From an uncultured Clostridia bacterium (GTDB taxonomy: Bacteria; Bacillota; Clostridia; JAAYHZ01), in NCBI GenBank assembly GCA_937894465.1, contig CALCRE010000060.1, forward strand, positions 1-48,823: DNA of 48,823 bases. The letters run 5' to 3'. Below are positions 1-34,773 of this stretch, one piece after another (within the stretch, counting starts at the first letter, position 1; the number at the start of each line of letters is the position of its first letter). Made by a program: the position numbers and the translations under genes. Below the pieces are notes generated by a model. It was not told the DNA's origin and did not search any database. It saw only the letters and a list, made by a program, of their open reading frames with translations.

Positions 1-758
1 TTCACGGCTTTCAGTGTGATTCCCGTTAATTTAGAAATGTTTTTATATGCAATTAACTCTTTATCTTCCTCAGAAATTCTGGCATAATCAATTAAAGCCC
101 TGTGTGCTCCCGGACTTTTAAAAGGCATATTTGTTCCAAAAACAAACCGGTGAGCACCGTACTTTTTAACCAAAAACTCTATGTTTTCATTACTTTGGAA
201 TGATGTAAAATCTGTGTATGTGTTCGGGTATTTGGATAAGAGACTATATATATATCTTTCTTGCCCCCATGATGCTCCTTGAATGATGACATGTAAACCG
301 GGATGCATCTCCAAAACAGTAATCAGTTCATTATATGATACTTCGGACCAGTCGATCAAAAGAGGAATACTTGCTTTCTCCAAGCCGGATAATTGTTTTC
401 CCACTGTGTCTTCATCAAATACATAAAAATGTCTTTTCGGAAACATCTTTGCCAGACGTATATTGTTTTCTTTCATTTGAGATATAAATGTATCTATGTC
501 CGGGAAATCACCGGCATTATCCGGCAGCAATACCCAACAACCATATAAGCGATCACTTTTTTTCATCTCATCTAATAAAAGCCTATTCCCATATTCCGGT
601 GAATAATGTTTTGCTAACCCATGGTATGCAAACGCTCCTGCAATCCCTGTACGATCCATTTCTCTTAAAATATCTTCTGTTTTCCACCTTTGTAAAGGAT
701 GCTTGTATGCATACTTACCAAGACATAAATCACAATCGAAATAAATTCTATTTCCCAT
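1..758 (-). CDS. amidohydrolase-2 (PF04909-like) family metal-dependent hydrolase, 3'-truncated by window edge
   Basis: Minus-strand ORF starts at an ATG (756-758) preceded by AGGAGGAG and runs off the window with no stop. The translation (MGNRIYFDCDLCLGKY...FVFGTNMPF) resembles amidohydrolase-2/TIM-barrel hydrolases. It is missing from the ORF track only because it has no stop. Confidence 0.7.
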   Translation of the reverse strand, partial: MGNRIYFDCDLCLGKYAYKHPLQRWKTEDILREMDRTGIAGAFAYHGLAKHYSPEYGNRLLLDEMKKSDRLYGCWVLLPDNAGDFPDIDTFISQMKENNIRLAKMFPKRHFYVFDEDTVGKQLSGLEKASIPLLIDWSEVSYNELITVLEMHPGLHVIIQGASWGQERYIYSLLSKYPNTYTDFTSFQSNENIEFLVKKYGAHRFVFGTNMPFKSPGAHRALIDYARISEEDKELIAYKNISKLTGITLKAV

Positions 759-840
759 AGAGCTCCTCCTAATGCATGTTAGACAGTACATGTCTAGATT
801 TTACCATAACTAATCTTTCGTTAACAGCAATCAAATAGAA

Positions 841-893
841 AAAGGGGACGCTTCTCAACCTTTTATGCACAAAAGATTGAGAAACGTCCCCTA
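841..893 (-). repeat. about 50-bp near-perfect palindrome (copy 1 of the GGGGACG-N-TTCTCAA / TTGAGAA-N-CGTCCCC element); likely intrinsic terminator for the SBP gene on the minus strand
   Basis: Left arm GGGGACGCTTCTCAA (844-858) and right arm TTGAGAAACGTCCCC (877-891) pair over 16 bp with one mismatch. The loop flanks CTTTT/AAAAG extend the stem. On the minus strand the stem is followed by TTTTTCTATTT. Confidence 0.7.
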
Positions 894-913
894 TCTTAAT
901 TTTTCCCAACTTA

Positions 914-2755
914 TCATTTAACACTCTTGTAATACTTAAATGTCTTTATTTCATCATTATTCCATATTTTAACCCAATCGTCTAAACCGGCATTATAAAG
1001 TTGCTCTATATATTGCTCCCATTCCGTATCGATGTTTGCTATCTGTCCACCCCAAATTCTACCTGTAAAATCATTTATAACAGAGTTAATTTGTGCGATG
1101 GTCTCTTCACGAAGTAATTTAAATTCTTCATATATCTCAGATGGCATAGTGTATTGACTATACAATTTATCCGGTTGAATCCACAAACTATCACCGAACC
1201 AACCATCCGGACTATATACTTCCCAGTACTTTATGAATTGTGTATAGAATGCATCGTAATTAAAATATGCATTCAAATCAGACATAAAATTCAAGTTGCC
1301 GAATTGTCCGAACATTGTTGTTCCTTTTCCGGCATATTTCGGTGGAATCTTTGTGGCATCCGTGAAGATAATGGGACTGTCCAAAGGTTCTGAATGCCAA
1401 GTATAATGCACTCCTTCTATTCCCCATTTATATCGCATCCAATTCTCACCGAAGTAAGCATATTCAACCATTTGGAATATCCTTGCCAGTTTTTCATCCG
1501 GAACATCACCTACCAAATACATCATCGTGCTCCAGTTAAAAGGTTGATGTGGTCGATAATTGCCGTTTTCACCGGCAACGGGTGTTACAACGAATGTAGC
1601 ATCCGGTTCAACACCGTTCAGAATAGCTGCCGGAGGCCATTGATCTCCGTCGTTGTATCCAAGCCCTAATACTCTCGGTGGTCCTAATGTGTCAATAAAT
1701 CCGGTTCTTCCGGTATTCCATATAGCCCTCAATTCCAAATTGTACGCTATTTCTCCAGGTACCCATTTCATATATCCTTTGTCTAGCATCCTCATCAAAA
1801 AGCTTAAATTATCTTTGTATGGTGTATATGCAAAATATGGTACATAGTCGTTCGTCAAAGGATCCTTATAGAAATGGGCTCCGTCTTGGTCGAAACCGAA
1901 CATATTGTATGATATGTACCGATCATATGCGGAATTAGCAAAAGGTGAACCGTATGTATCATCCGCCCCATTACCATCCGGATCATCTTCGGTAAATGCT
2001 CTTAGAATTTCCTCGACTTCACTAATAGTAAACTTTGTAGTTGAAAAATATAACCTATCATTCCATCGTTCAGGGTTCAATGCACTTTCCATAACGACGA
2101 GATTATCAAGTTCATAACCTAAATTCTCCAACCAATCCAATCTCCATATGGGTACCCATCCGGTATGCCTGGACAACGGAGTATACATAGCCAATCCATA
2201 ATATTCATCTTCAGTTCCTTCAACTAAATTAAAACTTAGACCAAGCGGGTCTTCTTGGATTAGTTTATAATAGCTAGGATAGAACTGTTGAATCATTTTT
2301 AACGGCACTGTTCTGCCTAATCCATTGTCAAACATGTATTTCCCGGTGGTGTAATAAAAGCCGTAATCAGGAACATCACCGGCAGCAAGCATCATTTGAA
2401 CTTGCTGCATCTCTGATGAGCTTACAAGAATATTCCACATTCTGATATCAACATTAAATTTCTCTTCTAGCTCTACTTCATCCCATCTTCCATCCTCATA
2501 TAAGTGAGATGAATATGTGCCTACCAACCAATTAATTGTCATTTTCTCAGCAAAGGGATTCTCGATTTTCGTTGTAGTCTCTGGTTGAGTCGTAACTGCT
2601 GTTGTAGTAACTGCTTTTGTTGTGTCGGCTTTTGTTGTTTGGCTTTGTGCCACTGAACCGGTAGTTACACTCTCGTTAACTTCTCTTCCGGAAGAGCATG
2701 CGACCAAAGAAAAGAGAAGTATCAACGATACGAGGATTGAAATAATTCTTAACAT
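914..2755 (-). CDS. large extracellular solute-binding lipoprotein (family-1 SBP, LplA/YtcQ-like), orphan (no adjacent permease genes)
   Basis: Signal peptide with lipobox LVAC followed by a Thr-rich linker (TTKADTTKAVTTTAVTTQPETTT). At 613 aa it matches the large sugar SBPs of Firmicutes. RBS GGGAGGAATAGT precedes the ATG. Confidence 0.75.
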   Translation of the reverse strand: MLRIISILVSLILLFSLVACSSGREVNESVTTGSVAQSQTTKADTTKAVTTTAVTTQPETTTKIENPFAEKMTINWLVGTYSSHLYEDGRWDEVELEEKFNVDIRMWNILVSSSEMQQVQMMLAAGDVPDYGFYYTTGKYMFDNGLGRTVPLKMIQQFYPSYYKLIQEDPLGLSFNLVEGTEDEYYGLAMYTPLSRHTGWVPIWRLDWLENLGYELDNLVVMESALNPERWNDRLYFSTTKFTISEVEEILRAFTEDDPDGNGADDTYGSPFANSAYDRYISYNMFGFDQDGAHFYKDPLTNDYVPYFAYTPYKDNLSFLMRMLDKGYMKWVPGEIAYNLELRAIWNTGRTGFIDTLGPPRVLGLGYNDGDQWPPAAILNGVEPDATFVVTPVAGENGNYRPHQPFNWSTMMYLVGDVPDEKLARIFQMVEYAYFGENWMRYKWGIEGVHYTWHSEPLDSPIIFTDATKIPPKYAGKGTTMFGQFGNLNFMSDLNAYFNYDAFYTQFIKYWEVYSPDGWFGDSLWIQPDKLYSQYTMPSEIYEEFKLLREETIAQINSVINDFTGRIWGGQIANIDTEWEQYIEQLYNAGLDDWVKIWNNDEIKTFKYYKSVK

Positions 2756-2899
2756 ACTATTCCTCCCATATCTTTTTTATCATTTTACATCATTGGTTAA
2801 TTTAAGTAAATAGGGTTATTTGTCCTATCTTAAGATAAATATCTTTTTTTAAATAATCATTTGTTCTTAATCTGTTATTGAGATTGTTCTCGAATTATA

Positions 2900-2952
2900 A
2901 AAGGGGACACATCTCAACTTTTCATATGGAAAAAGTTGAGATGCGTCCCCTT
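2900..2952 (-). repeat. about 50-bp palindrome (copy 2 of the same element); terminator-like on the minus strand downstream of the Zn-ribbon gene
   Basis: Arms GGGGACACATCTCAAC (2903-2918) and GTTGAGATGCGTCCCC (2935-2950) flank a central CATATG. On the minus strand the stem is followed by TTTTATAATT. Confidence 0.7.
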
Positions 2953-2954
2953 TC

Positions 2955-3518
2955 TTACACAACCTTTTTCCCCAATCTTTTTGCTAATTCCATTATGCCG
3001 CTATCAATAACTTCGCTTATAATAAATTGTCGTCTGGCTTCATCTTTAGGATTGTAGAAATTCCTATCTTTGAATTCATAGATTTGGTCAGCATATGCGA
3101 CAGCAATACAGAAATAATTTTCAGTTTCGAGCCATACATTTTGCATCATTTTGTTAATCTCTATGAGTATTGAAGTGGGATCATTAAAATTCCAAGTTTC
3201 CAGATTCACCTTATTAAATTTTGCATGGGTCATAACACCGTCCGCCATAGCATAAACTGCTTGCTTCTTTGATATTGTCAGGTACTTTACTTCCTGTTCT
3301 GTGAAAAAACGTGTCGTATAAATTTCACTTGGATTAAAAAAGTATCCGTCGCCAAATTCATCCGTATGATCAAATGAAAATTCGTCCATAGGTAGTTTTA
3401 CACAGCACTCTGCGCCACATTTTTGACAATAAAAGAATGCACCTAAGTCATCCACAAAAACATTCACTTTTTTATGAAAGTGACCGCAGTCACGACATTC
3501 TTGTTCAATGGTATACAT
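2955..3518 (-). CDS. hypothetical protein with N-terminal CxxC...CxxC zinc ribbon
   Basis: ORF 2955-3524. The likely true start is the ATG at 3516-3518 (MYTIEQECRDCGHF...), with AAAGGAGC 7 nt upstream. Two CxxC pairs sit in the first 45 aa. No recognisable enzymatic motifs. Confidence 0.6.
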   Translation of the reverse strand: MYTIEQECRDCGHFHKKVNVFVDDLGAFFYCQKCGAECCVKLPMDEFSFDHTDEFGDGYFFNPSEIYTTRFFTEQEVKYLTISKKQAVYAMADGVMTHAKFNKVNLETWNFNDPTSILIEINKMMQNVWLETENYFCIAVAYADQIYEFKDRNFYNPKDEARRQFIISEVIDSGIMELAKRLGKKVV

Positions 3519-3601
3519 AAGCAAAGCTCCTTTTATTTATTATCTATTTATATTCCGAAGGAGAACAATATTGTAATCCTCGACAAAAAGAAATTGCTCT
3601 G

Positions 3602-3640
3602 TATTGAAAAAGACTATTTAAACCAAATAGCCTTTTTTAT
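3602..3640. terminator. hairpin AAAAAGACTATTT-AAACC-AAATAGCCTTTTT, probable relic terminator of the truncated SBP paralog
   Basis: 13-bp stem with one mismatch, flanked by T/A runs. It lies just downstream (on the minus strand) of the SBP 3' fragment. Confidence 0.4.
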
Positions 3641-3655
3641 CAATAGCTCATTACT

Positions 3656-3770
3656 CTATACTTTATAATACTCAAATATTTTTATTTCATCGCTATTACA
3701 GAATTCAACCCAATCGCTAAGACCCACTATAAAGTTGTTCGATGTATTGCTATAATTCCGTATTTATATT
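3656..3770 (-). pseudogene. 3'-terminal fragment of a paralogous solute-binding lipoprotein gene (about 33 codons plus stop)
   Basis: 3661-3770 aligns at about 75-80% nt identity with 926-1035, the 3' end of the intact SBP gene. The minus-strand frame reads ...IVGLSDWVEFCNSDEIKIFEYYKV* against the intact ...NAGLDDWVKIWNNDEIKTFKYYKSVK*. Similarity ends abruptly near 3770. Confidence 0.65.
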
Positions 3771-3936
3771 AGAAATTATTTGCTTCTTCGGTAATCCTCG
3801 GTATGATATTGTTTTTAACATCTATATTTGTTACAGTAATATTAAAATACGAAAATCAAATTTTAAATTTCCTACTATTCAATGTTTATTATCTAAAAAG
3901 AAAAGTATGAAATTTATAATTGCAAAGGAGTAGGGT

Positions 3937-5745
3937 ATGAAATATCAGGAATTAGGTTATCCTTGCAGGAACTTCTGTGTCATGGCATCGGAGACTTTTT
4001 TAGACCCACTGGACAATCGGCGTAAATTTGCAATATCCAGTTTTGTCGCAAGCGGTACCGGGATCATTGTTATTATTGATATTGAATCCGGGCAAGGTGA
4101 AAGAATCGAACTGCCAAAAGATGAAGGCGCTTGGGCTTTGTATTGTTGGAACAATGAAAAGCTATTAATCGGAACCTGTTCAAGATACGGTTTTCTTCAT
4201 TGTTTGGATCTTAAGACAAGAACATGGTCGCCGTCATTAAGAGATGAAAAAGAAACCTATATTTGGAATTTGGTTGAAGGTTCCGACGGAAAAATCTATG
4301 GAGGAACTTATCCCGGAGGCGTTTTGCTTCGGTACGATCCTGTGGGACACAAACTCGAGAATATGGGTAGAATGTCACCTGATGAAAAAAACAACTACAC
4401 CCGACCTTTATATAACGGGGTTGACGGCAGAATATTTTTAACATCCGGATATAACAGCACCCATATGGTTTCATGGGATATCGAAAAGGAAAAATATATG
4501 AAGTTCGGACACGACGGCTGTATGGTCAAAGAAGCCAATCAACACTTTGTATGCGGTATCAATGAAAAGACCAAGGAATTAACTTTTTATCATCCTTATA
4601 CTCTTGAGCAAATTGAAGATGCCGTTCAATATGAATCCATTGATTTGACATGTATAAAGAATCCAGCCATAAAAGAATATTTGAAATCCTTCAAATTGAC
4701 CAGAGAACATGGAGGTCCTAATGTACGAAAACCAAAATGGGATGACGGTACAGTAAAATGCGGCACAGCAGGTCAAAGCTACTATATAGAGCAACCGGAT
4801 GGATCTCGCCAATACAAACGAATTCCCGTAGAAGCTCCCCCCACTGCCATTTTAGGTCTTGCCTATGACGGTAAAGGAAAGATTTGGGGATCCAGCGGGT
4901 TCGGTCAAACTATTTTTTCATACGATACACAAACCGGAGAATATTTTAATACCATAGAAGTGGCCAATGCCGGTGGTGAAGTATATGGTATTTGCCCTGT
5001 AGAAGATCGACTATATCTCACCAGTTATTGCGGAGGAGAACATACGGTATATTATCCGAACATGCCATGGAACAAAGGAGAAAATCCAAAAACCATTGAA
5101 GAGTTGCGTCCTCGATATATTCGACCACATAGTAAAAGTGTGATCGGTGCCGATGGTTATGTGTGGACAGGTTGGTGGGCAGATTATGGTACTTACGGCG
5201 GTGCAATCAGTAAAATTGATGTACAAACAGATCAAGTCACCATTTATGAAAGTCCCGTACCGGATCAAGGTATCGAATCCATTGTCGCCGGAACAAATGG
5301 TATTATATTTTCTACAACCGGACACGGAAACGGCCTTCCGAGCAGAAATATTCCTTTGTGGCTAGTAAAGATGAATTATACGGGAGAAACCTTATGGAAA
5401 AAAGAATATGACGTCAAATATGGAATCGGACCGATGGCTATAGTCGGTGATTATTTATTTGTAAGACTAGGAAGTGAATTTGCAGTGTTTGATACGGTTG
5501 ATATGAGTCAAGTCACAACCCTTACATATCCGATTACAAACAAAGGTCGTCCTTTGACCGGACTACTAGCATATAATCATGAGACTTTGGTGGTATTTCA
5601 TTGTCAAGAAGCCTTGTTTGTGAAGGTTCCTGAGTTTACGATCTCAAAAAAGGTTGAAACAGGCAGTGATATTCATTATGCAATCACAGGTGACCATCAA
5701 CAGATTTATTTTGCAAAAGGATCCTTGCTGTGTAAGTTAGGATAA
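3937..5745 (+). CDS. cytoplasmic beta-propeller repeat protein (Reg_prop/NHL-like repeats), function unknown
   Basis: 602 aa with no signal peptide. Repeated DG-K/R-I-Y/W-xxT-xxGG-xL-xYD modules (for example DGKIYGGTYPGGVLLRYDP, KGKIWGSSGFGQTIFSYDTQT, DGYVWTGWW). RBS AAGGAG 6 nt upstream. Confidence 0.65.
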   Translation: MKYQELGYPCRNFCVMASETFLDPLDNRRKFAISSFVASGTGIIVIIDIESGQGERIELPKDEGAWALYCWNNEKLLIGTCSRYGFLHCLDLKTRTWSPSLRDEKETYIWNLVEGSDGKIYGGTYPGGVLLRYDPVGHKLENMGRMSPDEKNNYTRPLYNGVDGRIFLTSGYNSTHMVSWDIEKEKYMKFGHDGCMVKEANQHFVCGINEKTKELTFYHPYTLEQIEDAVQYESIDLTCIKNPAIKEYLKSFKLTREHGGPNVRKPKWDDGTVKCGTAGQSYYIEQPDGSRQYKRIPVEAPPTAILGLAYDGKGKIWGSSGFGQTIFSYDTQTGEYFNTIEVANAGGEVYGICPVEDRLYLTSYCGGEHTVYYPNMPWNKGENPKTIEELRPRYIRPHSKSVIGADGYVWTGWWADYGTYGGAISKIDVQTDQVTIYESPVPDQGIESIVAGTNGIIFSTTGHGNGLPSRNIPLWLVKMNYTGETLWKKEYDVKYGIGPMAIVGDYLFVRLGSEFAVFDTVDMSQVTTLTYPITNKGRPLTGLLAYNHETLVVFHCQEALFVKVPEFTISKKVETGSDIHYAITGDHQQIYFAKGSLLCKLG

Positions 5746-7176: not shown

Positions 7177-7644
7177 TTAGGATAAAGTCTTTACCATGAT
7201 CAAACAAGGATTTTGTTCATTCCAAATTTCTTTAAATTCATCCAATGGGAAAAAACCAACGTTCCTATAAAAAGCTCTTGTTCTTGCATAGTAAAGATCA
7301 TCGCTGGAGTCACCTACTGTTTTCACCATAAAAAATTTATATTCATTTTTCGTTAGATATTCTTCCGCGGCCCCTATCAGCATACAACCGATACCCTGTC
7401 TGTGAAATTCCTCTAATATCCCCACCAAAAACAGTTCAGCAGTAAAGGGATTAACATGTCGAAGACAAATAAACCCTATAACCTTCCCATGAAAAATTGC
7501 AGCATAAAAAATTTTGTCTCTTACATCCTTCATATATTCTTGAATTGATGACTCAATTCCAAACCAATTCGGAAGTTTGTGCAAGATCTCATCCGTAATG
7601 TTCATCTTTTGCGTTTCATCAATAATTTCAATGATATCAATCAT
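7177..7644 (-). CDS. GNAT family N-acetyltransferase
   Basis: 155 aa with acetyl-CoA binding motif HRQGIGCML. It ends 10 nt upstream of the MFS gene, so a likely operon. Confidence 0.8.
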   Translation of the reverse strand: MIDIIEIIDETQKMNITDEILHKLPNWFGIESSIQEYMKDVRDKIFYAAIFHGKVIGFICLRHVNPFTAELFLVGILEEFHRQGIGCMLIGAAEEYLTKNEYKFFMVKTVGDSSDDLYYARTRAFYRNVGFFPLDEFKEIWNEQNPCLIMVKTLS

Positions 7645-9281: not shown

Positions 9282-9379
9282 ATTAGCACCTCCTTGTCTT
9301 GTATAGTGGCGATACAAATGATCTATACAATATATTCCCTTGCACATAATCGGTGCTTTTGTTTGATTTAATAAAATGA

Positions 9380-9408
9380 TTGAGAACCGTCCCCGCTCAT
9401 ATTATAAT
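9380..9408 (+). promoter_or_regulatory. sigma-A-type promoter for the ABC exporter operon; its -35 is supplied by copy 3 of the TTGAGAACCGTCCCC element
   Basis: TTGAGA (9380-9385), a 17-bp spacer, then TATAAT (9403-9408). The ATG at 9441 is preceded by GAGGGA. Confidence 0.6.
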
Positions 9409-9440
9409 ACATTTAACGCTTTAATGAGGGAATTAAATTT

Positions 9441-11159
9441 ATGAGTATATATGGTAAGTATTTTAGAAAATACAAATATCCGTTCTTGGTAGCGGTTTTG
9501 TGTGTTGCTTTAGAAGGGGTATGCGATTTACTCGGCCCTACTTTGATGTCCAACATCATCAACAAGGGAATAGAGAAACAAATGATGTCCGAAGTTTATC
9601 GTTGGGGTGGATTGATGTTGCTAGTGACTCTATTTGGTGCATTTTTCGCAGTGACCAGGAATATTTTCGCCAGCAAAACCTCTCAAAGAATGGGAGCTGA
9701 TTTACGATATGATTTGTTCAAAAAAATCATTAGTTTTTCAGAAGAAGGATCTGATAAGATAGAAAGCGGATCATTAATTACACGAATGACCAATGATACC
9801 GCTCAAGTCATTCAATTTGTGAACGGGATCATGCGTATTTTTTTAAAAGCTCCGATCACCTGTATAGGAAGTATAATCTTCGCGAGTATTCTAAATTTTC
9901 GCCTAAGTTTAATCATTTATGGAGTAGTGGCGGCGGTAGCCGTTCTCATCACCATCAGCATGAAGCTAAGTTACCCTAGGTTTTCCAAGCTACAAGCAGC
10001 AAGGGATAAAATGAATATTGTTGTGCAAGAATATCTTATTGGTGTTCGAGTAGTAAAAGCTTTCGGTACATATAAAGAAGAGACGGAAAAGTTTCATGAT
10101 ACGAATGACTCATTAATGAAAAGAAGTGTATCATCTCAAATGGTTATCACTCTTATTTCTCCCATTATTAATCTAACCGTAGGTATAGGAACTGTCGCAG
10201 TCGTTTATCTCGGTAGTATTCTGTTTCCAATGCAACTTGCCGAACCCGGAGATATCACCGCATTTATTATTTATATGGCACAAATTCTTTCCTCTTTGAT
10301 TATGATCACCAATGTATTCAATGTATTCGTTCGAACCAAGGCTTCCACTGCACGTATTAAAGAAGTATTGGACAGTTCCGAAGACTTTTCAGAAACAGGC
10401 GAAAAGAAAAAAATTACCGGTGACATTGAGTTTCGAAATGTTACTTTTGCCTACCCCGCTGGTAGCGGTGTCCCGGCTGTTAGAAACCTTTCTTTAGTGA
10501 TTGAGCACGGCCAAAACCTTGCCATCATCGGACCGACCGGAAGTGGGAAATCTACCGTTGCATGGCTTTTATTACGGTTTTACGATGTGGACAACGGTCA
10601 GATTTTGATCAACGGTCAAGATATCCGTCAATTGAATGTAAAATCTTTACGAAATCAAATTGCCTTGGTACCGCAAAACCCAATGCTCTTTTCCGGAACC
10701 ATTTCCGAGAACATCAAATGGGGAGATAAACAAGCAACAAACGACTCCATCGATCAAGTTGTAAAAAAGGCTGAAGCCGGTTTCATTTATAACATGCCAA
10801 ACCAATACGACAGTATACTAGGAAGTTCCGGTGTCAATATTTCGGGTGGGCAAAAGCAACGGATCTCCATTGCACGGGGATTAATCAAAGACTCCCCCAT
10901 TCTAATTTTAGATGATGCAACAAGCGCTCTTGATGCCGTCACCGAATCCAAAGTCCGACAAAACTTAAAATCAGATCAAATGGAACGAACGGTTATCACA
11001 ATCACACAGCGTATCGGTACAGCCATGTCATCTGATAAGATCCTTGTAATGGATAACGGCAATAGTGTCGGTTTCGGAACCCACGATGAACTGATGAAAG
11101 AATGCCCGATGTATAAAGATATTTACAAATTACAAATAGAAGGCAGCAAGGAGGCGTGA
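9441..11159 (+). CDS. ABC transporter ATP-binding/permease (type I exporter half-transporter), subunit 1 of a heterodimer
   Basis: N-terminal 6-TMS domain plus NBD with Walker A GPTGSGKST, signature ISGGQKQRISIARGL and Walker B ILILDDATSALD. Confidence 0.9.
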   Translation: MSIYGKYFRKYKYPFLVAVLCVALEGVCDLLGPTLMSNIINKGIEKQMMSEVYRWGGLMLLVTLFGAFFAVTRNIFASKTSQRMGADLRYDLFKKIISFSEEGSDKIESGSLITRMTNDTAQVIQFVNGIMRIFLKAPITCIGSIIFASILNFRLSLIIYGVVAAVAVLITISMKLSYPRFSKLQAARDKMNIVVQEYLIGVRVVKAFGTYKEETEKFHDTNDSLMKRSVSSQMVITLISPIINLTVGIGTVAVVYLGSILFPMQLAEPGDITAFIIYMAQILSSLIMITNVFNVFVRTKASTARIKEVLDSSEDFSETGEKKKITGDIEFRNVTFAYPAGSGVPAVRNLSLVIEHGQNLAIIGPTGSGKSTVAWLLLRFYDVDNGQILINGQDIRQLNVKSLRNQIALVPQNPMLFSGTISENIKWGDKQATNDSIDQVVKKAEAGFIYNMPNQYDSILGSSGVNISGGQKQRISIARGLIKDSPILILDDATSALDAVTESKVRQNLKSDQMERTVITITQRIGTAMSSDKILVMDNGNSVGFGTHDELMKECPMYKDIYKLQIEGSKEA

Positions 11160-11160
11160 T

Positions 11161-13020
11161 ATGGCCCAACAACAACCAAGACAAGATACAAAGGTTCCGT
11201 CATTAAGCAACAGGCCGGCTGGTGGAGGTGCAGGTCGTTTTGCACCGAATGCAAAACCTAAAAACGCAAAGGGAACACTTTTAAGAATTATAAAGATATA
11301 CATGCAATGGGGTAAAACTATATTAGTCGCTATGTTGCTTACGGCCATTGCATCCGGTATTGCCGTAAGTATACCCTACTTTACCGGTAAAACATTTAAT
11401 ACCTTTGATTTACAAACACGTACTGTAAATATTGATGACCTTCTTCGCTTTTTATTAATCCTATTGTCACTTCATGTGTGTTCTTTGACCATCTCATGGA
11501 TCAACGGGATCATTATGCTAAAGGTGTCTCAGAAATTAGTGTTCACGATACGTAATGAAGTGTTTTCCAAAATGCAAAAGCTTCCCTTACAGTTTTATGA
11601 TACCCGCTCACATGGAGATACCATGAGTAGAATCACCAATGACGTGGATAATATTAGCTCCACCATCGCACAAACCACAACTCAATTAGTGTCCAGTATA
11701 CTGACTTTAGCTGGATCATTGATTGTGATGATTTCATTGAGTATTCCTCTCACACTGATTGTTTTATTGGTAATTCCCCTTGTTGCATTGTTAACGAAAT
11801 CCATCGCATCGAAAAGCCGTGCATATTTTAGAGCGCAGTCTAAAAGTTTGGGGGAATTAAACGGTGTAATTGAAGAGAATATCCAAGGACTAAAGATGGT
11901 AAAAGCTTTTGGAAAGCAACAAGATATGCTTAATCAATTTAACGGCATTAACGAACAATTATATGACAACAGTAAAAAAGCTATGATATGGTCCGGATAT
12001 ATGATGCCATTAATGAATGTAATCAATAATTTTGTATTTGCTTTGGTTTCCATCATTGGCGGTATATTGACCATAGAGCAAGGCTTAGTGATTGGCACGG
12101 TAGTTAGCTTTTTAAGTTATTCCAAGCAATTTGCTTTTCCTTTAAATGCTATTGCCGGTATGTTTAACACCATACAATCTGCTTTAGCAGGTGCCGAACG
12201 TGTTTTTGAGTTGTTCGACAGTAAAGAAGAACCTTCTGATCTTCAAGATGCCATTGATATAAAGAACCCAAAAGGGTACGTAGTATTTGATGATGTAAGC
12301 TTTTCCTATAAAATCAATCCTGTCTTAAAAAATATATCATTCCATGTCAATGCAGGTGAGGTGATTGCATTAGTGGGTGAAACCGGTGCAGGTAAGACAA
12401 CCGTAGTGAACTTGTTGACACGATTTTATGATGCGGATAGCGGAGTGATACATATAGACGGAATCCCTATTCATGATATAAAAAGAAACAGTTTGAGAAA
12501 ATGTTTCTCGGTTGTTTTACAAGACACATCACTATTTAGTGGAACGATTTTGGAGAACATCCGCTATTCTCAGCCTGATGCGACAGAACAACAGGTGATC
12601 AAAGCAGCTAAAATAGCGCATGCACATGATTTTATCGACAAGCTTCCTAATGGATATCATACCATGGTTTCCGGATCTACCGACAACTTAAGCCAAGGAC
12701 AGCGCCAGCTCATATCCATCGCACGAGCAGTTTTAAGTGAAAGTCCTATATTGATCTTAGATGAAGCCACCAGCAGTGTTGATACCAAAACCGAGAAGGA
12801 TATCCAAAAAGCTTTGTTAGGATTGATGAAAAATCGTACCAGCTTCCTTATCGCCCACCGATTATCCACCATCAGAGATGCAAATCACATTATGGTGATC
12901 GGTAATGGCTCCATATTAGAAAGAGGAAACCATAAAACCTTGATGCAACATAAAGGTCATTATTATGAAATGGTGACAAGTCAAACTCAGATTAGGGACA
13001 GTTCTCAACAAATTTTATAA
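11161..13020 (+). CDS. ABC transporter ATP-binding/permease, subunit 2 of a heterodimeric exporter, with a basic low-complexity N-terminal extension
   Basis: Walker A GETGAGKTT, signature LSQGQRQLISIARAV, Walker B ILILDEATSSVD. Its start overlaps the upstream stop (TGATATG), indicating translational coupling. Confidence 0.9.
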   Translation: MAQQQPRQDTKVPSLSNRPAGGGAGRFAPNAKPKNAKGTLLRIIKIYMQWGKTILVAMLLTAIASGIAVSIPYFTGKTFNTFDLQTRTVNIDDLLRFLLILLSLHVCSLTISWINGIIMLKVSQKLVFTIRNEVFSKMQKLPLQFYDTRSHGDTMSRITNDVDNISSTIAQTTTQLVSSILTLAGSLIVMISLSIPLTLIVLLVIPLVALLTKSIASKSRAYFRAQSKSLGELNGVIEENIQGLKMVKAFGKQQDMLNQFNGINEQLYDNSKKAMIWSGYMMPLMNVINNFVFALVSIIGGILTIEQGLVIGTVVSFLSYSKQFAFPLNAIAGMFNTIQSALAGAERVFELFDSKEEPSDLQDAIDIKNPKGYVVFDDVSFSYKINPVLKNISFHVNAGEVIALVGETGAGKTTVVNLLTRFYDADSGVIHIDGIPIHDIKRNSLRKCFSVVLQDTSLFSGTILENIRYSQPDATEQQVIKAAKIAHAHDFIDKLPNGYHTMVSGSTDNLSQGQRQLISIARAVLSESPILILDEATSSVDTKTEKDIQKALLGLMKNRTSFLIAHRLSTIRDANHIMVIGNGSILERGNHKTLMQHKGHYYEMVTSQTQIRDSSQQIL

Positions 13021-13107: not shown

Positions 13108-14418
13108 TTACAAGCGCCATATAAAGGATGCCTGTTTCGAAAAACGATTCAGTAAATCGGATATCTTAAATTCCCTGCAATCATTCATGTAAGTGTGTAC
13201 TTTGTCGTTAAAACCGGCATACCAGTGTTCCGGTAGTTTTTCAAAGCCTGAAAGAGCACCTGCAATGCTACCTGCCGTAGCTCCATTACAATCATTGTCT
13301 AAGCCCATTGCAACGGTTTGGGATAAAACTTTTGTCAAATCATCTCTGCCTATCATTAAACCGAATATTGTCAGGACAGCATTATTAACAGTATGTACTC
13401 CGCTCATACCTTGATACCTATTATCAACAATTTCCCGGGCTTGGCGATAATCGTGTACATTTTTACCTTCCTGGATCGCCCAAGCAATCTCTTTTGCCAA
13501 TGTGCAATTCTCCGGTATTTCCGTCAATCCGATTCTTAACGCTTCCTCTAAATCGTCGGTTGTAAAAGCAGCTGAAATAACTGCCGCAAAATACATAGCA
13601 CCATAAATACCTGTCCTTCTATGGCTGAGCATAGCATCAGTCCAAGCCATTTGCGCAGCCTTCTCCGGCCATCCCGGTGCCATATATCCCCAAGGATCCG
13701 AGCGTATATATGCACCGATCCACAACTGATAGGGGTTATCCTTTTCCCCACATTGATCTGCCGGTATACCCTTCTTTAAATTCTTTAATGCTATATCCTC
13801 GGCGGTATAAGCAACAGGAAGATATTTCACCCATGCTTGTCCAACATTTTCAACTGTAAAGTCCGTACCGTATTGTTCGGCAATCAATAATCCTAAAATA
13901 GTGTATGTTATATCGTCATCTACCGGAACACCGTCCATTTGGTAGCGTAAATATTCTTTTCTTTTGCTGACGCCATAACGTACAGTATCAGGATCCGGTA
14001 TATCCGTCCAATAATCGGTGGGTGGAAATGGTTGATTACATTCTTTAGACCATTCTTCCATTTTTGATATGGGCCATGCCTCAACGATTGCCCCTAATGT
14101 ACAACCTGCCATTCGAGCTAAAAAAGAGCCTTTCAATTTGTCCATATAGATTTCTTCTTTGAAATCATGCCAAATCTTTCTCGGTCCGTCCGGTCGAAGC
14201 TTTTTAATGTCATCTAAAGAATTCGGTTCATTAAAAACCGAATCGGATTCTTCCGGTAGATTATTCACATAATTAATACATGATTTCAATGTATCCTCTA
14301 TTTGTATTAGAGCATGATCAATTCCTATCCCGCCGTTTTCAACTTTCCTCTTTGTGTATAGCTCTAGCTTTCTAAATAGATTCCATATTACATCTGTGTT
14401 TGGATATTTCATTTTCAT
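13108..14418 (-). CDS. ADP-ribosylglycohydrolase (ARH/DraG-like) family protein with an approximately 90-aa N-terminal extension
   Basis: ARH-like motifs GCTLGAIVEAW and MGLDNDCNGATAGSIAGALSG. An alternative start ATG at 14410-14412 is preceded by AAGGGGGA. Confidence 0.7.
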   Translation of the reverse strand: MKMKYPNTDVIWNLFRKLELYTKRKVENGGIGIDHALIQIEDTLKSCINYVNNLPEESDSVFNEPNSLDDIKKLRPDGPRKIWHDFKEEIYMDKLKGSFLARMAGCTLGAIVEAWPISKMEEWSKECNQPFPPTDYWTDIPDPDTVRYGVSKRKEYLRYQMDGVPVDDDITYTILGLLIAEQYGTDFTVENVGQAWVKYLPVAYTAEDIALKNLKKGIPADQCGEKDNPYQLWIGAYIRSDPWGYMAPGWPEKAAQMAWTDAMLSHRRTGIYGAMYFAAVISAAFTTDDLEEALRIGLTEIPENCTLAKEIAWAIQEGKNVHDYRQAREIVDNRYQGMSGVHTVNNAVLTIFGLMIGRDDLTKVLSQTVAMGLDNDCNGATAGSIAGALSGFEKLPEHWYAGFNDKVHTYMNDCREFKISDLLNRFSKQASFIWRL

Positions 14419-14445
14419 CCCCCTTTATGGGTGTTTTTTAACTTT

Positions 14446-14838
14446 TTAACCTTTTATGATTTTTACAAAAATGCTCCTGCTTCTTGGACCATCAAATTCA
14501 CAAAAATATATACCTTGCCATGTGCCTAACATCAGACTTCCGTTTTCAATGATCACTGTGCACGATGAACCGGTCAATGTAGCCTTGAGATGCGCATGAG
14601 AATTCCCTTCCATGTGTAGATATTGACCTTTCACGGGATATGTTTGATTCAAACCGGAAATGATATCTGTGATCACATCAGGATCGGCATCCTCATTAAT
14701 CGTTACTCCGGCGGTAGTATGCGGTACAAACACCATAACAATTCCATCTTTGATTCCTGTTTCCGTCACTGCTTTTTTAACAATGGATGTAATATCATAA
14801 AAGTCCTGATTTTTTATTGTCCTAATATGATATATCAT
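14446..14838 (-). CDS. YjbQ/UPF0047 family protein (secondary thiamine-phosphate synthase-like)
   Basis: 130 aa with the conserved HMEGNSHAHLKATL region. It overlaps the upstream M24 gene by 4 nt. Confidence 0.8.
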   Translation of the reverse strand: MIYHIRTIKNQDFYDITSIVKKAVTETGIKDGIVMVFVPHTTAGVTINEDADPDVITDIISGLNQTYPVKGQYLHMEGNSHAHLKATLTGSSCTVIIENGSLMLGTWQGIYFCEFDGPRSRSIFVKIIKG

Positions 14839-16189: not shown

Positions 16190-16204
16190 TTGAGAACCGT
16201 CCCC
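16190..16204 (+). repeat. copy 4 of the TTGAGAACCGTCCCC motif (half-site, directly after the aaRS stop)
   Basis: Exact 15-mer. On the minus strand it reads GGGGACGGTTCTCAAC followed by TTTTTG. Confidence 0.8.
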
Positions 16205-22996: not shown

Positions 22997-23011
22997 TTGA
23001 GAACCGTCCCC
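22997..23011 (+). repeat. copy 5 of the TTGAGAACCGTCCCC motif
   Basis: Exact 15-mer, 6 nt downstream of the oxidoreductase stop on the minus strand. It overlaps a small CGGTT-gag-AACCG hairpin. Confidence 0.8.
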
Positions 23012-34758: not shown

Positions 34759-34773
34759 TTGAGAAGCGTCCCC
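34759..34773 (+). repeat. copy 6 of the motif (TTGAGAAGCGTCCCC), preceded by a partial direct repeat AGTTGAGAA
   Basis: 15-mer lying between the NUDIX stop and the secA-like start. Confidence 0.8.

Follow-up and report, generated by a model that had tools for sequence, protein, structure and literature searches.

A disabled 3' remnant of a solute-binding-protein gene beside a Zn-ribbon ORFan in an uncultured Clostridiales genome, possibly left by deletion of a tandem paralogue

Introduction

The question raised by the locus described here is how a short stretch that resembles the end of a neighbouring gene arose and whether its parent was a gene of its own. The window, which is the whole 48,823-nt contig of a metagenome-assembled genome (MAG) of an uncultured Clostridiales bacterium, shows the following minus-strand order at its left end: the promoter of a divergent beta-propeller gene, a 127-nt stretch similar to a solute-binding-protein (SBP) gene, a hairpin, a gene for a Zn-ribbon protein, a palindrome, an intact SBP gene, a second palindrome and, beyond this SBP terminator, an amidohydrolase gene that extends off the window's edge (Table 1). 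We compared the 127-nt stretch with its intact neighbour, with the corresponding loci of related genomes and with more distant members of the SBP family, and weighed several routes by which it could have come to its present place.

Results

The intact solute-binding-protein gene

By its sequence, the intact 613-aa protein is probably an AlgQ/LplA-type binding lipoprotein. The signal peptide read from the translation, MLRIISILVSLILLFSLVAC/SSG, has the LVAC lipobox of a lipoprotein; weak matches to known structures were obtained for AlgQ1 (E=3.6e-5) and for the 6fth C-terminus (E=1.6e-4), and the C-terminus matched DUF3502 of Pfam at E=5e-4 with 20.8 bits, under the cut-off of 24.4. The signal peptide is shared with AlgQ1 and AlgQ2 of Sphingomonas and with the LplA-type lipoproteins of Firmicutes, and the weak but specific AlgQ1 and family 1 matches and the DUF3502-like C-terminus point towards the same proteins; the sub-threshold Pfam match, the amidohydrolase and beta-propeller flanks and the missing adjacent ABC permease set the protein apart from them. 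No ABC permease or ATPase gene adjoins the SBP gene in the window, where its neighbours are the amidohydrolase, Zn-ribbon and beta-propeller genes, and no ABC permease was found among the genes downstream of the SBP gene in a second species (L008), which encode an amidohydrolase and Y1_Tnp, UPF0236 and Band_7 proteins. The SBP family is represented by several paralogues per genome.

Table 1. Features at the left end of the window (positions in nucleotides of the window)
Feature	Position	Strand	Remarks
Palindromic terminator, GGGGAC...TCTCAA family	841..895	-	After the intact SBP gene
Intact lipoprotein SBP gene, 613 aa	914..2755	-	AlgQ1-like family 1; DUF3502-like C-terminus
Palindromic terminator, GGGGAC...TCTCAA family	2900..2953	-	After the Zn-ribbon gene
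Zn-ribbon ORFan gene	2955..3518	-	187 aa from ATG at 3518; N-terminal CxxC...CxxC
Zn-ribbon gene -10 box (TATAAA) to ribosome-binding site (AAAGGAG)	3526..3552	-	Conserved with L015; local alignment z 4.3
A-tract / 13-bp AU-rich stem / U-tract hairpin	3607..3638	-	18 nt after the relic's stop
Relic of a putative second SBP gene (SBP2)	3656..3782	-	Last 41 codons and stop (TAG 3656-3658); without start codon or 5' part
Conserved promoter block of the beta-propeller gene	3807..3851	+	TTAACA-16-TAATAT; 25 nt from the relic's 5' edge
Beta-propeller gene, 602 aa	3937..5745	+	Divergent from the relic; syntenic in two related species

Extent and lesions of the SBP-like stretch

Local alignment of positions 3540-3940 with 760-2800 paired 3660-3763 with 923-1029 at a score of 99, compared with 24.75±2.75 (maximum 37) for 200 shuffled controls, and BLASTN against the whole window returned the same match to the 3' end of the SBP gene with 79.8% identity over 104 nt (3 gaps, E=3.9e-19) and no third copy. 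A repeat search resolved the similarity into two gap-free blocks, D3 (81%) and D5 (78%), and the counterpart of the stretch in the intact gene is its 3' end at 917-1040, which corresponds to the DUF3502-like C-terminal domain.

At the codon level the stretch carries an in-frame stop (TGG GAG changed to TTA TAG), a 2-nt frameshift deletion and a 3-nt insertion, so that its translation is spread over two frames: ...QIISNINTEL*QYIEQLY is followed, after the 2-nt deletion, by VGLSDWVEFCNSDEIKIFEYYKV*, where the intact gene reads QIANIDTEWEQYIEQLYNAGLDDWVKIWNNDEIKTFKYYKSVK*. Two invariant tryptophans have been lost and 41 of about 613 codons are retained. Truncation, the in-frame TAG and the 2-nt deletion are disabling lesions of the kind that define a pseudogene, and homology to a functional gene is documented by the scores above and by blastx matches to several SBP C-termini (E ~1e-7).

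The original prediction, which had been made from the window's letters, described a 3' SBP similarity well beyond chance, and the alignment scores confirm it; its details were accurate in part. The identity of 75-80% that it gave agrees with the 104-nt BLASTN segment and falls to 73.3% when all 120 alignable columns are taken. The shared reading frame holds for the last 22-24 codons (GLSDWVEFCNSDEIKIFEYYKV*) and breaks down upstream, at the 2-nt deletion, the in-frame stop and the 3-nt insertion. Similarity had been thought to end abruptly at about 3770, but codon-level homology continues to about 3782. The downstream hairpin that was said to have been kept is present, but its sequence is unrelated to that of the hairpin after the intact gene.

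The relic matched every SBP C-terminus in two frames by blastx and tblastn, with L011 as an exception among the paralogues in that its tail stretch fails to align. The best protein matches were the orthologue of a third species (L015; 67% over 24 aa), the window's own SBP (64%) and the L008 orthologue (54%), followed by more distant paralogues that mostly reached 44-48%, L013 being an exception at 56%. Nucleotide identity over the 120 aligned columns was 76.7% to the L015 orthologue, 73.3% to the neighbouring SBP gene and 69.2% to L008, relative to 60-67.5% for the more distant paralogues. Over the relic-aligned columns the intact SBP genes of the window species and L015 are themselves 73.8% identical; because identity to the neighbour is no higher than identity to another species' orthologue, the relic is not a recent copy of the neighbour.

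No 5' SBP piece was found elsewhere in the 48.8-kb window. A full-length SBP2 gene (~1.8 kb) would be expected to end in ...GLSDWVEFWNSDEIKIFEYYKV. A protein search with the repaired 42-aa relic peptide yielded no candidate, and it also missed the neighbouring SBP that shares QYIEQLY, so that this search is uninformative; a degenerate-codon scan for DWVEF[W/C]NxDEIK over a metagenome collection, which includes an assembly containing the source organism, gave a sole match, the relic of the same organism.

The sequence that follows the relic resembles an undisturbed 3' gene end, with the native stop, the hairpin and then the conserved promoter and ribosome-binding site of the Zn-ribbon gene in succession. 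An 81-nt stretch containing the hairpin (3585-3665) has a folding energy of -16.3 kcal/mol (z -2.15), and the hairpin is probably the lost SBP2 gene's own weak intrinsic terminator. Comparison of the relic's downstream sequence with those of eight SBP genes revealed no relationship; one match in this comparison, to L009 at z=4.7, is probably a terminator-like chance similarity. Rfam models run on 700-4000 gave sub-threshold microRNA-hairpin noise on two palindromes and no match in the relic.

Codon-position pattern of the relic

Differences between the relic and the neighbouring SBP gene are distributed over the first, second and third codon positions as 9/5/18, which gives a divergence of 0.18 at first and second positions (p12) and of 0.44 at third positions (p3); p3 relative to the L015 SBP gene is 0.34. 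The intact orthologues of the window species and L015 differ by 7/5/20, and p12 of intact pairs is 0.15. Genome-wide, synonymous sites between these two species are saturated (pS 0.67-0.76, dS ~2), and the flanking genes have dN/dS values of 0.04-0.08. For neutral drift we estimated an expected p12 of 0.30-0.35, at which seeing no more than 14 differences among the 79 first and second positions would have a probability of 0.009 to 0.0006. Neutral drift over such a distance would have left the sequence beyond recognition. Since synonymous sites are saturated while first and second positions have kept their conservation, the relic is unlikely to have been neutral ever since its divergence; its excess divergence at first and second positions amounts to about 0.03-0.05.

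Changes unique to the relic, tiny as the counts are, fall evenly on the three positions (4/3/3), compared with 2/2/6 and 1/2/7 in the intact genes, and this even spread, set against the mainly third-position changes of intact genes, fits a short neutral phase. The relic's informative splits number 5 versus 3 versus 2, and with 120 alignable bases its placement is weak. The pattern suggests that the parent of the relic would have been a separate SBP gene, functional for most of its history and inactivated only recently.

Comparison with related genomes

The locus, with its relic, is ~100% identical in seven further assemblies of this species. Assemblies L001-L007 came from fermentation and digester samples. 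In the second species (L008 and L016-L019), whose SBP and beta-propeller proteins have 77% and 76% amino-acid identity to those of the window, the amidohydrolase and SBP genes are followed by the divergent beta-propeller, MFS and LysM/YkuD genes in the gene order of the window; the beta-propeller/SBP spacer is 257 nt long, and the locus lacks the relic as well as the Zn-ribbon and GNAT genes. In L015 (SBP 80.5%, beta-propeller 80.6% and Zn-ribbon 54% identity) the order is beta-propeller, Zn-ribbon, SBP and amidohydrolase, with a 277-nt beta-propeller/Zn-ribbon spacer that lacks the relic. Blastx of the L015 and L008 spacers at E values up to 100 detected no SBP traces above noise, and sliding-window identity along the SBP and beta-propeller proteins gave no sign of a recombination mosaic.

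The conserved promoter block upstream of the beta-propeller gene, TTGTTTTTAACATCTATATTTGTTACAGTAAT, is shared over 40-45 nt with L015 (z 12.5); its conservation in L008 is weak (z 4.4). As the beta-propeller gene also lies beside the SBP locus in both relatives, this conservation indicates that the adjacency is ancestral. We considered an ATG within the block (MLKTIS..., similar to the SBP N-termini MLRIIS and MFKKTIS) as the start of the lost gene, which would make the deletion internal; this candidate was rejected because in L015, and weakly in L008, the block is conserved in front of the beta-propeller gene while the SBP start lies elsewhere.

These comparisons bear on the remaining parts of the original prediction. 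Its central proposal, that a second SBP gene has left a truncated 3' end here, is upheld: the lesions disable this relic, which is distinct from the neighbour and has a substitution pattern of coding constraint up to recent times. Its explanation, that insertion of a beta-propeller/MFS/GNAT block had removed the 5' part, lacks support: the adjacency is ancestral, the promoter block is conserved and the window holds no 5' piece. Nor was the intact tandem SBP pair that it suggested looking for present in the relatives available (three species of the clade, roughly equidistant). The GNAT gene is the only lineage-specific member of the block, and it is a separate lineage-specific gain or loss.

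Several further features of these genomes were recorded. The GNAT acetyltransferase gene (7177-7644), which separates the MFS and LysM/YkuD genes, is missing in L008 and L016-L019, although these are otherwise syntenic. The 602-aa beta-propeller protein had no Pfam match above threshold and belongs to a large family (299 matches at E<=1e-20) spread over Clostridia, Paenibacillus, Latescibacterota, Gemmatimonadota and others. In assembly L001 (GCA_003504795.1, DNZH01000043.1; 8493-8966) about 474 extra bases, comprising a 107-aa ORF and 'NN', take the place of 29 nt of window sequence that lie after the Zn-gene terminator and before the SBP promoter; they are probably a scaffolding join, and the MFS and LysM/YkuD genes of this contig are split into pieces.

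The Zn-ribbon ORFan

The window species and L015 have the Zn-ribbon gene, which L008 lacks. Between the first two, pN (0.27) is well below pS (0.76), which shows that it is a real coding gene. One homologue, with 54% identity, came out of both an index of 5.8 billion proteins and 1.84 billion cluster representatives searched exhaustively with HMMER, so the protein is known from two species only (among ~15 billion proteins), and it is 54% identical between them relative to ~80% for the neighbouring genes, evolving three times faster than these. No match was obtained to Pfam, NCBIfam or PDB sequences, or to phage and plasmid sequences; a Foldseek search of the PDB with an AlphaFold2 model (pLDDT 63.5) returned nothing at E<0.4, and the C-terminal domain is predicted to be helical (pLDDT ~80). 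The gene was also considered as a scrambled SBP piece, and this idea was dropped when tblastx of the region against the SBP gene matched the shared palindrome only.

The Zn-ribbon gene may sit in the original spacer of a tandem SBP pair, as had also been proposed, and the data are compatible with this. The more far-reaching idea, that the ORFan originated within the spacer of a recently collapsed tandem SBP pair or was captured there, we regard as unlikely; if true, the locus would allow the emergence of an ORFan next to a decaying paralogue to be dated.

Palindromic repeats around the locus

The palindromes that follow the intact SBP and Zn-ribbon genes are 75-82% identical to each other, flanks included. 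Their 15-nt motif GGGGAC(G/A)nnTCTCAA is over-represented in the window, with 9 matches relative to 0.8 expected, and half-sites lie at 9380-9394, 16190-16204, 22997-23011 and 34759-34773; solo half-sites have a single orientation and are mostly located 3-24 nt past the stop codons of minus-strand genes. The half-site within 9375-9417 (+) provides, by eye, TTGAGA, 17 nt and TATAAT, a near-consensus promoter 30 nt upstream of an ABC exporter gene at 9441. The motif also occurs in related species (L008 at 865-908, 9843-9856 and 11957-11970; L010 at 7218-7263), making three species in all; it is intergenic and in the relatives sometimes forms direct doublets ~30 nt apart. No Rfam entry matched it; for GGGGAC(N3)TCTCAA a REP/MITE-like repeat and a terminator family are both conceivable.

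In L008 a 317-aa gene with Y1_Tnp (IS200-like) and Bac_DnaA_C domains (13654-14792) is preceded by the palindrome GTAGGGGACGGTACCGAATTC...GAATTGAAGGAACGTCCCC, which is of the same GGGGACG...CGTCCCC type as the window terminators, a possible RAYT/REP-like pairing. As a side possibility, the GGGGAC...TCTCAA palindromes might be a REP-like family mobilised in this uncultured Clostridia lineage by a DnaA_C-carrying Y1 transposase. The intergenic palindromes scattered over the three species and the L008 palindrome just upstream of Y1_Tnp are reminiscent of REP/BIME elements with Y1 (IS200-like, RAYT-type) transposases; they differ in that no Y1 transposase gene, nor any homologue of the L008 one, occurs in the window and the REP-typical GTAG head is unconserved. 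This likeness concerns the hairpins and not the relic.

In one assembly of the window species (L003, Logan SRR10947789; 776-789 versus window 2885-2941) the palindrome that follows the Zn-ribbon gene lacks 57 nt between two 7-nt ATCTCAA repeats, with a single half-site left. The gap is a true polymorphism among strains, or else the hairpin was collapsed during assembly, and from it microhomology deletions may be occurring at the relic locus in natural populations.

Discussion

With a probability of roughly 60%, we interpret 3656-3782 of the minus strand as the non-functional remnant of SBP2, an AlgQ/LplA-type SBP gene that once formed a tandem with the intact SBP gene and was located upstream of the Zn-ribbon ORFan. 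SBP2 would have arisen by duplication within the lineage of the neighbouring SBP gene, because the relic is closest to that orthologue group (67%, 64% and 54%), and would have persisted intact in the ancestors of the window species. A single illegitimate deletion of ~1.7 kb may then have taken its promoter, start and ~94% of the coding sequence, stopping just short of the conserved beta-propeller promoter and leaving behind 41 terminal codons with their stop and terminator and, after these, an undisturbed Zn-gene promoter. The related species would have lost SBP2 completely; the spacers of L015 and L008 are devoid of SBP traces, so that deletion in place requires independent complete losses. 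The relic would now be without function and heading for erasure.

These additional losses are where a different origin gains ground, in which no tandem gene ever existed and an ectopic or foreign fragment of ~180 nt, consisting of a 3' coding end and terminator, was inserted between the beta-propeller and Zn-gene promoters. Its source would be a functional SBP gene elsewhere in the genome or the orthologue of a related species, joined by illegitimate recombination or repair. As neither relative has a tandem pair or a relic, a single insertion involves fewer events; the several SBP paralogues per genome make donors available, the relic is nominally nearer to the SBP gene of L015 than to its neighbour in both nucleotide identity and p3, and a short neutral phase fits equally well. 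However, the relic ends as a natural gene does, with stop and hairpin and the conserved Zn promoter next to them, the DWVEF[W/C]NxDEIK scan of the metagenome collection disclosed no donor-like sequence, and neither a mobile-element signature at the relic's flanks nor a mosaic pattern in the flanking genes was seen. We consider such an insertion possible but doubtful.

Partial duplication of the neighbour's tail, with ~125-200 nt copied upstream and drifting neutrally since, is very unlikely in our assessment: the relic is no more identical to the neighbour (73%) than orthologues of different species are to each other (74%), neutral drift of that age should have randomised first and second positions (p12 0.18 versus 0.15 for intact pairs), and the sequences 3' of the two stop codons are unrelated, even though the adjacent SBP gene is the closest sequence within the window and the split that groups the relic and the window SBP against L015 and L008 is nominally the commonest informative one (5 sites). 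We find it hardly credible that the stretch works as a non-coding element and has been retained as, for instance, a leader, a small RNA or a terminator that insulates the Zn-ribbon gene. Such an element would account for the plausible terminator-like hairpin having been kept and for a sequence that is invariant in seven independent assemblies of the species, but these assemblies are ~100% identical throughout, so their invariance carries no information; moreover, no upstream gene on the same strand needs termination, Rfam has no match in the relic and the Zn-ribbon gene of L015 exists without this stretch.

The relic is an ordinary case of a bacterial gene remnant, here from a binding-protein family with several copies, and only the fragment itself was undescribed before. 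It is like other bacterial gene remnants in its homology to a functional gene, its truncation, its stop and frameshift, its missing start and its even lineage-specific changes, and has no unusual trait; its intact ancestor or donor is unseen. For annotation, this means that the stretch is best recorded as a pseudogene fragment rather than a small ORF. The comparative data also correct the direction of the rearrangement, which would be a deletion beside a conserved promoter and not the insertion of a neighbouring gene block. Furthermore, the pattern over codon positions in a short relic can still separate a recently truncated functional gene from an old decayed copy, even between species that are saturated at synonymous sites. 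Deletion of a tandem SBP2 gene in place would mean that this uncultured Clostridiales lineage has recently lost one of its several AlgQ/LplA-type binding proteins.
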